Positions 46-210 are shown, counted from the first letter of the stretch. The stretch is DNA of 210 bases from Escherichia coli (GCF_003334255.1 NZ_QOWU01000282.1), one strand, 5' to 3'. The notes: a model not told the origin generated them from the sequence alone. Program-made: numbers and translations.

Positions 46-210
46 CAGCCTTCCGGTTGGCCCTTGTGGTCCCTGTGGTCCGGTTTCACCTGTCGGTCCC
101 TGTGGACCTGTCGGGCCCTGTCTTCCTGTTTCTCCCTGCAAACCTCGTGGCCCCGTTTTACCCGCAGGACCTGCCGGACCAACCGGCCCCGGAACACCCT
201 GTGCCCCCGC
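1..210 (-). CDS. collagen-like triple-helix repeat protein, internal fragment (5' and 3' ends both outside window)
   Basis: Reverse-complement frame with codons at + 208-210, 205-207, ... 1-3 is open for all 70 codons and translates to [70 protein letters not shown]. Gly is at every third position for 18 consecutive triplets, with Pro in 10 of 18 X positions. No in-frame ATG or stop is present, so both ends are truncated by the window. Product family is assigned from the Gly-X-Y signature only; no homology search was possible. Confidence 0.8.
46..210 (-). repeat. Gly-X-Y collagen-like triplet repeat region (18 complete triplets, uninterrupted; continues beyond + 210)
   Basis: Triplets in reading order are [54 protein letters not shown]. 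At the DNA level this appears as imperfect 9-bp/27-bp periodicity on the + strand, e.g. ggtccctgtgg at 68-78 and 95-105, ggcccttgtgg at 59-69 and gggccctgtc at 113-122. GC is about 67% in this segment, driven by GGN/CCN codons. Confidence 0.8.

Follow-up and report, generated by a model that had tools for sequence, protein, structure and literature searches.

The window, by which we mean the whole 210-nt stretch of DNA analyzed in this study, was translated directly on the minus strand (frame 0) into 70 residues without a stop codon, and no complete open reading frame (ORF) was listed as this frame runs off both ends. Residues 2–55 (plus-strand positions 46–207) comprise 18 uninterrupted Gly-X-Y triplets, while the longest stop-free Gly-X-Y run was 5 triplets in 5000 mononucleotide shuffles searched in all six frames. 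The bases 208–210 are an Ala codon, which fills the Y position of a GPA triplet starting outside of the window. Pro occupies 10 of the 18 X positions (56%), and the rest are Glu and Arg (two each) and Ala, Val, Lys, and Leu (one each). At the 18 Y positions, Gln and Thr appeared six times each, together with Ala (two) and Pro, Val, Arg, and Leu (one each). The preliminary description had placed a minus-strand collagen-like repeat at positions 46–210; its coordinates, the number of triplets, and its counts of Pro, Thr, and Gln were all reproduced exactly.

The segment at 46–210 (minus strand) was assigned to a collagen-like (Gly-X-Y) coding sequence on the basis of the translation, the residue counts, full-length copies of the gene, PHROG families, and the collagen chains in PDB, and contains the last 18 triplets (46–207) plus the Ala codon (208–210) of a 39-triplet collagen block termed Col2. 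Base 46 is the true C-terminal end of the collagen domain, and the last counted triplet, GRL, marks the boundary with a non-collagen tip domain. The first 15 codons of this 92-aa C-terminal tip occupy positions 1–45 (minus strand), as the continuation of the frame to its stop codon indicated, and the GC content of this part is 47% vs 67% for the collagen part. The 70-aa translation by itself matched the tail-fiber and 'collagen like minor tail' families of PHROG. No match to either strand of the window was found in Rfam (E ≤ 1). Tandem Repeats Finder detected weak 9-, 10-, and 18-nt periodicity only, which reflects the recurring GPQ/GPT triplets at the DNA level. On the plus strand, frame 1 is stop-free over a long range (positions 31–210). 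A real plus-strand gene in the window was rejected, as open antisense frames are expected from GGN/CCN-rich sequence and no support for such a gene was found.

The window is 100% identical to the corresponding regions of the temperate Escherichia phages PhiR12_1, PhiR12_2, PhiR12_2_star, and PhiR12_4, and 99% identical to that of phage PhiR5_1. Sequences with 100% identity were found in at least 13 complete E. coli chromosomes (13 listed), and the window was matched in 36 of 5426 E. coli genomes, always on the chromosome. The matches in phages PhiR5_2 and PhiR12_3 displayed 80–84% identity because of a mosaic patch inside the window (see below). No paper of relevance turned up in a literature search on the PhiR12/PhiR5 phages, and an exact-sequence cluster look-up with three full-length fiber proteins found none of them in the collection.

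We compared five loci, namely those of phage PhiR12_1 (L001; PV340549.1), E. coli SCU-104 (L002), E. coli EC2 (L003; NZ_CP058571.1), and phages PhiR5_2 and PhiR12_3 (L004 and L005). In PhiR12_1, the window lies within a 520-codon gene directly after the tail-tip genes K, I, and J, and the EC2 gene that holds it has 402 codons and follows L, K, I, J, and an Ail/Lom gene. This gene order is that of stf in phage lambda, which follows J (and lom). The same 3' module ends the 653–677-codon genes of SCU-104, PhiR5_2, and PhiR12_3, which sit in the late region of a short-tailed phage with an N4-gp56-family capsid gene. The stop codon is located 234 nt past the window (78 further codons) in PhiR12_1, SCU-104, and EC2, and the reading frame of the fiber gene is intact in all of the five loci despite the recombination-prone repeat. 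Records of E. coli prophages and of temperate phages annotate the gene as a tail fiber or a prophage tail fiber N-terminal domain-containing protein. The preliminary description had named a prophage tail fiber as one of its candidates and pointed to the flanks as the place to look for phage structural genes. This candidate was borne out by the annotations, the exact matches in phages and prophages, and the phage Pfam domains in frame, and the flanks proved to carry the J and J-lom tail modules in PhiR12_1 and EC2. Apart from the fiber gene, a gene annotated as the porin OmpC (L003 1–1269) abuts the minor tail gene L in EC2, and neither head nor proximal tail genes intervene. The EC2 prophage looks truncated or rearranged at this porin junction, or looks to carry a phage-borne porin gene.

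The copies of the protein were 287, 402, 426, 520, 653, 662, and 677 aa long, and the variants of the full protein ranged from 402 to 677 aa. The 520-aa protein of PhiR12_1 begins with Pfam phage_tail_N (PF08400, abbreviated as PfN; aa 1–134, E of 2.4e-42), which is followed by a short Ala/Glu-rich helix, collagen block 1 with one G-D-P-G-G-P-P-G interruption (aa 136–253), Phage_fiber_2 (PF03406, abbreviated as Pf2; aa 260–301, E of 8.7e-16), Col2 with 39 triplets (aa 312–428), and the 92-aa C-terminal tip (aa 429–520). The window corresponds to aa 374–443 of this protein, with its collagen portion at aa 374–428. Recovery of the full ORF, as the preliminary description had advised, extended the repeat upstream to 39 triplets in total in the full-length copies. 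A coiled coil is optional among the variants, and the 677-aa variant of SCU-104 bears a long one. The full protein matched the PHROG family phrog_366 'tail fiber protein' (7e-122).

Pfam Collagen (PF01391) matched block 1 twice (1.4e-08 and 5.8e-05), while the Pfam search with the fragment covering Col2 and the tip (L001 7815–8441; aa 312–520) found nothing even at E ≤ 10. A comparison against collagen profiles, which had been suggested for the repeat in the window, was thus successful for another block of the same protein but not for the block in question. The missing match for Col2 probably reflects compositional filtering in HMMER, not the absence of the repeat. A profile search by itself would miss Col2, despite its 39 perfect Gly-X-Y triplets.

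In a phmmer search against PDB, collagen alpha chains aligned to aa 309–426, with strong scores (3e-74). Such strong matches, as well as the largely open antisense frames, are what could be anticipated if the window were an exon of an animal collagen gene, or a GC-rich repeat that encodes nothing and is open by accident. Nevertheless, exact matches were found only in E. coli chromosomes and coliphages, and the repeat is a part of one continuous ORF of 402–677 codons, which also encodes phage domains in frame. The near absence of Pro at the Y positions and the lack of an Rfam match also disagree with these possibilities, to which we assign a negligible probability. The exact matches in bacteria and phages and the single long ORF refute both the eukaryotic exon and the accidental frame.

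The N-terminal domain and the Pf2 motif were 53% and 56% identical to the corresponding regions of lambda orf-401, respectively (BLASTP, 8e-39 and 5e-12). Furthermore, residues 1–91 matched the Stf collar chain of Ur-lambda (9e7m_Ta; 2e-30). In the cryo-EM structure of Ur-lambda (9E7M), four trimeric side fibers come together through their twelve N-terminal domains, which build a dodecameric collar where gpV meets gpM (PMC12617516). The fiber studied here and lambda Stf (orf-401/orf-314) share the homologous collar domain, the Pf2 motif, and the gene position after J and lom. Lambda Stf is a trimeric accessory fiber that accelerates adsorption, and the side fibers speed up this process 10–30-fold through OmpC, albeit plaques can be formed without them (PMC12617516). 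On the other hand, the rod of lambda Stf comprises coiled-coil domains and a gp37-like, OmpC-binding distal part (PMC12617516), whereas that of the present fiber is a collagen repeat. No similarity was detected between the distal part of lambda Stf and the present tip.

Collagen-like side-tail-fiber proteins of E. coli prophages have been described as EPcl (Ghosh et al., 2012; PLoS One 7:e37872; PMC3368898), and are assembled from the building blocks PfN, PCoil, Col, Pf2, and C-terminal domains. EPcl proteins bear a conserved G-x-P-G-G-P-x-G interruption and differ in length by multiples of three (PMC3368898). PfN, Pf2, the location in a tail module, and an EPclP-type composition were all found in the protein studied here. 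In EPclP, the X positions are occupied by Pro (48%) and Asp/Glu (36%), and the Y positions by Pro (7%), Arg/Lys (31%), Ala (21%), Gln (14.5%), and Thr (20%; Table 4 in PMC3368898). For the whole protein of PhiR12_1, the corresponding values are 50% and 23% at X, and 11.5%, 23%, 27%, 13%, and 17% at Y, and the 18 triplets in the window are somewhat richer in Gln and Thr and poorer in charged residues than this whole-protein average. Cys, Phe, His, Trp, and Tyr are absent from the collagen triplets of EPclP (Table 4 in PMC3368898) and those of the PhiR12_1 protein alike. The earlier argument from composition, in which Pro is favored at X and Thr and Gln instead of Pro are favored at Y, is therefore in line with the published profile of E. 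coli prophages (PMC3368898).

Within EPcl, EPclA and EPclB (ECs2717; Z1483/ECs1228 = Sp5 ORF67) resemble the present protein in PfN, the coiled coil, Col, and the triplet usage, and EPclB additionally in Pf2. However, the C-termini of EPclA and EPclB are PF06820 (Phage_fiber_C, abbreviated as PfC), and the present protein possesses the unrelated 92-aa tip instead. In the Pfam searches, PF06820 was found neither in the full protein nor in the fragment covering Col2 and the tip. Thus, the protein falls with the EPclC/D architectures, which are defined by different C-termini (PMC3368898). EPclC (ECED1_2081; P-EibA ORF-401) shares with the PhiR12_1 protein the arrangement of PfN, Col with the G-x-P-G-G-P-x-G interruption, Pf2, Col, and a non-PfC C-terminus. 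ECED1_2081 of strain ED1a is listed as a 520-aa EPclC protein that lacks a PCoil and whose two collagen domains measure 118 and 117 aa (Table 3 in PMC3368898), and the PhiR12_1 protein has the same dimensions (520 aa and 118/117). An Eib-like trimeric autotransporter is expected downstream in P-Eib-type prophages, one of which is listed in Table 3 of PMC3368898, and the same was seen in the loci examined here. The 677-aa variant of SCU-104 differs from EPclC in combining an EPclB-like front with an EPclC-like back in the context of a short-tailed phage. Altogether, the protein is almost certainly EPclC, a known and catalogued architecture, with ECED1_2081 being compared by architecture and dimensions. 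The EPclC proteins were catalogued without characterization in PMC3368898.

Two relatives have been studied experimentally. Recombinant EPclA (rEPclA) forms dumbbell-shaped trimers that show the CD spectrum of collagen and melt at 42°C (Tm), and both trimerization and renucleation of the helix are brought about by its C-terminal domain (PMC3368898). ORF67 (EPclB) of the Stx2 phage Sp5 proved essential upon deletion and was localized to the tail end by immuno-EM; Sp5 is a 933W-like, short-tailed phage, for which an N4-gp56-family capsid domain was reported (PMC5155283). Altogether, we regard the window as an internal piece of a lambda-Stf-type side tail fiber gene of temperate E. coli phages, which encodes a collagen triple-helix rod, with a probability of roughly 93%.

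The preliminary description had also considered proteins of the Scl or BclA type and, as a speculation, O-glycosylation of Thr in GPT triplets. Scl1/Scl2 of S. pyogenes, BclA of B. anthracis, and Lcl of Legionella resemble the present protein as hydroxyproline-free bacterial collagens with frequent Thr and Gln at Y, and their triple helices need a globular trimerization domain next to them. A bacterial surface adhesin or an exosporium-type protein related to them would be consistent with the Pro-poor, Thr/Gln-rich Y positions, which resemble those of Gram-positive collagen-like proteins, and matches to SclB, SclA, and Lcl in NCBIfam and a weak match to BclA (1wck; 1e-6) were indeed obtained. 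However, the NCBIfam scores were far below the curated cut-offs (146.5 vs 325 for SclB, 130.1 vs 400 for SclA, and 117.6 vs 500 for Lcl) and arise from the Gly-X-Y repeat. Likewise, the alignment with BclA was confined to the Gly-X-Y region, and the tip has no sequence relative in PDB. The protein ends with ...GLFQRAY and bears no LPXTG, its N-terminus is a phage collar domain, and the gene resides inside phage tail modules, whereas Scl1/Scl2, BclA, and Lcl reside on the cell surface or the exosporium and bring anchors and domains of their own. With the cut-offs missed, and with neither LPXTG nor a C1q/TNF-like domain, membership in the Scl, Lcl, or BclA family was refuted, and we consider a surface protein with glycosylated GPT triplets very unlikely. 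The proposed O-glycosylation found no support, as the related rEPclA produced in E. coli was not glycosylated as judged by PAS staining and mass (PMC3368898).

Returning to the side tail fiber, the alignment of the window with the five loci revealed a mosaic patch within the collagen segment at plus-strand positions 87–146 (minus-strand nt 65–124). In PhiR5_2 and PhiR12_3, this patch is replaced by another Gly-X-Y sequence, QGPAGGRGPMG[P/L]PGLDGK, and both flanks are identical. The indels among the copies are multiples of 9 nt, so that Gly stays in phase, and three database proteins (P0012, P0014, and P0005) bear in-frame deletions within or beside the region of the window. As all of these changes keep Gly in phase, they are independent evidence that the minus-strand frame is the selected one. 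The frame, identity, domain architecture, genomic position, and mosaicism are established for this gene.

The tip starts with 15 residues (window positions 1–45) that are invariant in all 10 of the aligned copies, and the entire tip was 92–100% identical across the five loci irrespective of the phage type. Of 5426 complete E. coli genomes, 28 carry the tip DNA, each with at least 95.8% identity, and a tblastn search of 50,697 phage records detected the tip in eight, all of which were PhiR phages. The exhaustive HMMER search against 1.84 billion representatives recovered a tight group of relatives with at least 91% identity, and those with a named source were all of E. coli. Consistently, a word-indexed protein search with the tip recovered relatives at 90% identity or more only. 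The tip had no match in Pfam, and the PDB sequence search gave chance-level matches only (best E of 0.18). The sole PHROG match to the tip was marginal (phrog_17472; 2.7e-4). Among the 1.84 billion representatives, five weak, multi-stretch matches were found (P0015–P0019; 1.8e-10 to 9.7e-4, 27–34% identity), four of which are surface proteins with Ig/Big-like repeats and one is another repeat protein. These matches may be a compositional effect or a hint of an all-beta or beta-sandwich fold. We do not regard them as homology between the tip and these repeat proteins. The AlphaFold2 model of the tip, which was based on an alignment of 10 sequences, was all-beta but unreliable (mean pLDDT of 39.9 and pTM of 0.29). 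In sequence, the tip is unrelated to PfC, the domain for which trimerization has been demonstrated. Nonetheless, the position of the tip and the precedents of PfC, Scl2-V, and BclA-CTD suggest that it would serve for trimerization and registration of the chains as well as receptor binding. Three database ORFs (P0003, P0004, and P0007) join unrelated N-terminal sequences to the tip exactly at ...PGEIYSIG, and P0007 begins with the N-terminus of a DUF4376 protein. These joins may be artefacts of assembly or gene calling on short contigs, or rearrangements at the junction between the collagen and the tip.

A gene for a 192-aa DUF4376 protein (Pfam, 1.8e-18) follows the fiber gene with a gap of 16–19 nt in all of the five loci. 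The product matched a PHROG 'tail fiber protein' family (phrog_1141; 2e-77), and the gene is annotated as a tail fiber assembly protein in PhiR5_2. Thus, the tip may be envisaged mainly as a platform for docking and registration, with the DUF4376 protein acting at the end of the fiber as the actual adhesin or as an assembly factor that stays in place, much as T2-type gp38 sits on gp37. The conserved position of the DUF4376 gene and the two assignments above favor such a division of labor, but the similarity of the protein to lambda Tfa was not significant (E of 0.063), and no NCBIfam match was found. Moreover, an IS21-family element (L001 8556–11132) splits the DUF4376 gene of PhiR12_1 approximately 111 nt into the gene, and the record of this phage gives E. 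coli K-12 MG1655 as the host, implying that this phage can form plaques without the gene. The whole side fiber could equally be dispensable for plaques, as in lambda (PMC12617516). On balance, we consider this division of labor possible but unlikely; the DUF4376 protein itself may be either an assembly chaperone or a distal component of the fiber. The IS21-family element was recognized by IstA (310.5 bits vs the NCBIfam cut-off of 160) and the IstB helper ATPase (270 vs 200), and approximately 9 bp are common to both junctions.

Downstream of the pair of the fiber and DUF4376 genes, a YadA-type trimeric autotransporter gene was found in all of the five loci (L001 12424–13503; L002 9850–11127; L003 9519–10766; L004 5830–7089; L005 5406–6899). 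The copy of SCU-104 matched the structures of EibD (2xqh, 3e-31; 2xzr, 6e-27), an immunoglobulin-binding protein, and we thus regard the YadA-type genes as Eib-type prophage cargo genes. In EC2, the DUF4376 gene is frameshifted. Given that this neighbor gene is frameshifted in EC2 and split in PhiR12_1, the fiber system may be non-functional in some carriers. Defective prophages are common in E. coli, and the gene in the source genome could be a relic of a cryptic or decaying prophage that makes no functional fiber. The tail region adjoining a porin gene in EC2 and the disrupted DUF4376 genes are in agreement with decay, and the side fibers of lambda are dispensable in laboratory strains (PMC12617516). 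Against decay, however, the fiber frame is intact in five of five loci, all indels keep the triplet phase, and the tip domain is carried by eight phage genome records. We therefore find it rather improbable that the gene is a relic.

The last collagen block, the tip, and the DUF4376 and Eib-like genes were found on two types of phages (L002 3044–8444 vs L001 3169–8444 and L003 2944–8444). In the lambdoid long-tailed type, they are found after J/lom and behind a short front of PfN and Col, while those in the type with the N4-gp56-family capsid gene, which is also known from the 933W-like Sp5, are behind a front with a long coiled coil. Clearly, a tail-fiber module has been exchanged across phage morphotypes. 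The last collagen block, the tip, the DUF4376 gene, and the Eib-like gene together may constitute a cassette. We only tentatively entertain, as a doubtful proposal, that the tip is a structurally new module for receptor binding and trimerization, which moves as a cassette between long- and short-tailed temperate coliphages.

Based on the characterized relatives, we propose how the fiber would work. Three chains would make one fiber, in which PfN (about 91–134 aa) would anchor the fiber to the tail. The stalk would be thin and semi-rigid, and is predicted to comprise an Ala/Ser/Glu-rich coiled coil (short or long), a collagen block, the Pf2 'knob' repeat, and the 39-triplet collagen block, with the 92-aa C-terminal globular domain as the cap. 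The triple helix could be stable without hydroxyproline, with Pro at about half of the X positions and Thr, Gln, Ala, and charged residues at the Y positions. The cap presumably nucleates and registers the three chains, and the helix would zip up from the C-terminal end. The same cap may touch the host surface for fast, reversible adsorption before the central fiber (J) binds. The trimer, the triple helix, the location on the tail, and the attachment to the collar are extrapolated for this fiber from its relatives. As the rod consists of repeated triplets, recombination inside it would shift the length by whole triplets and swap the tips between phages.

The protein class found here has already been described and characterized, and the finding is correct but ordinary. 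A catalogue, recombinant expression, and biophysical characterization are available for the collagen-like fibers of E. coli prophages (PMC3368898), genetics and immuno-EM have identified one of them as the tail fiber of an Stx2 phage (PMC5155283), and the homologous collar has been solved in Ur-lambda (PMC12617516). The window carries little weight as a discovery, and new biology, such as a receptor or a fold, could remain only in the tip domain (mostly beyond the window) and the DUF4376 protein associated with it. The gene is, instead, a worked example of a hydroxyproline-free collagen used as a length-adjustable rod. With such a repeat rod, a fiber can be resized in whole triplets, and phages of unrelated morphotypes can trade their tips for host recognition. 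This is relevant to the host range of temperate phages of E. coli, Shiga-toxin phages among them.
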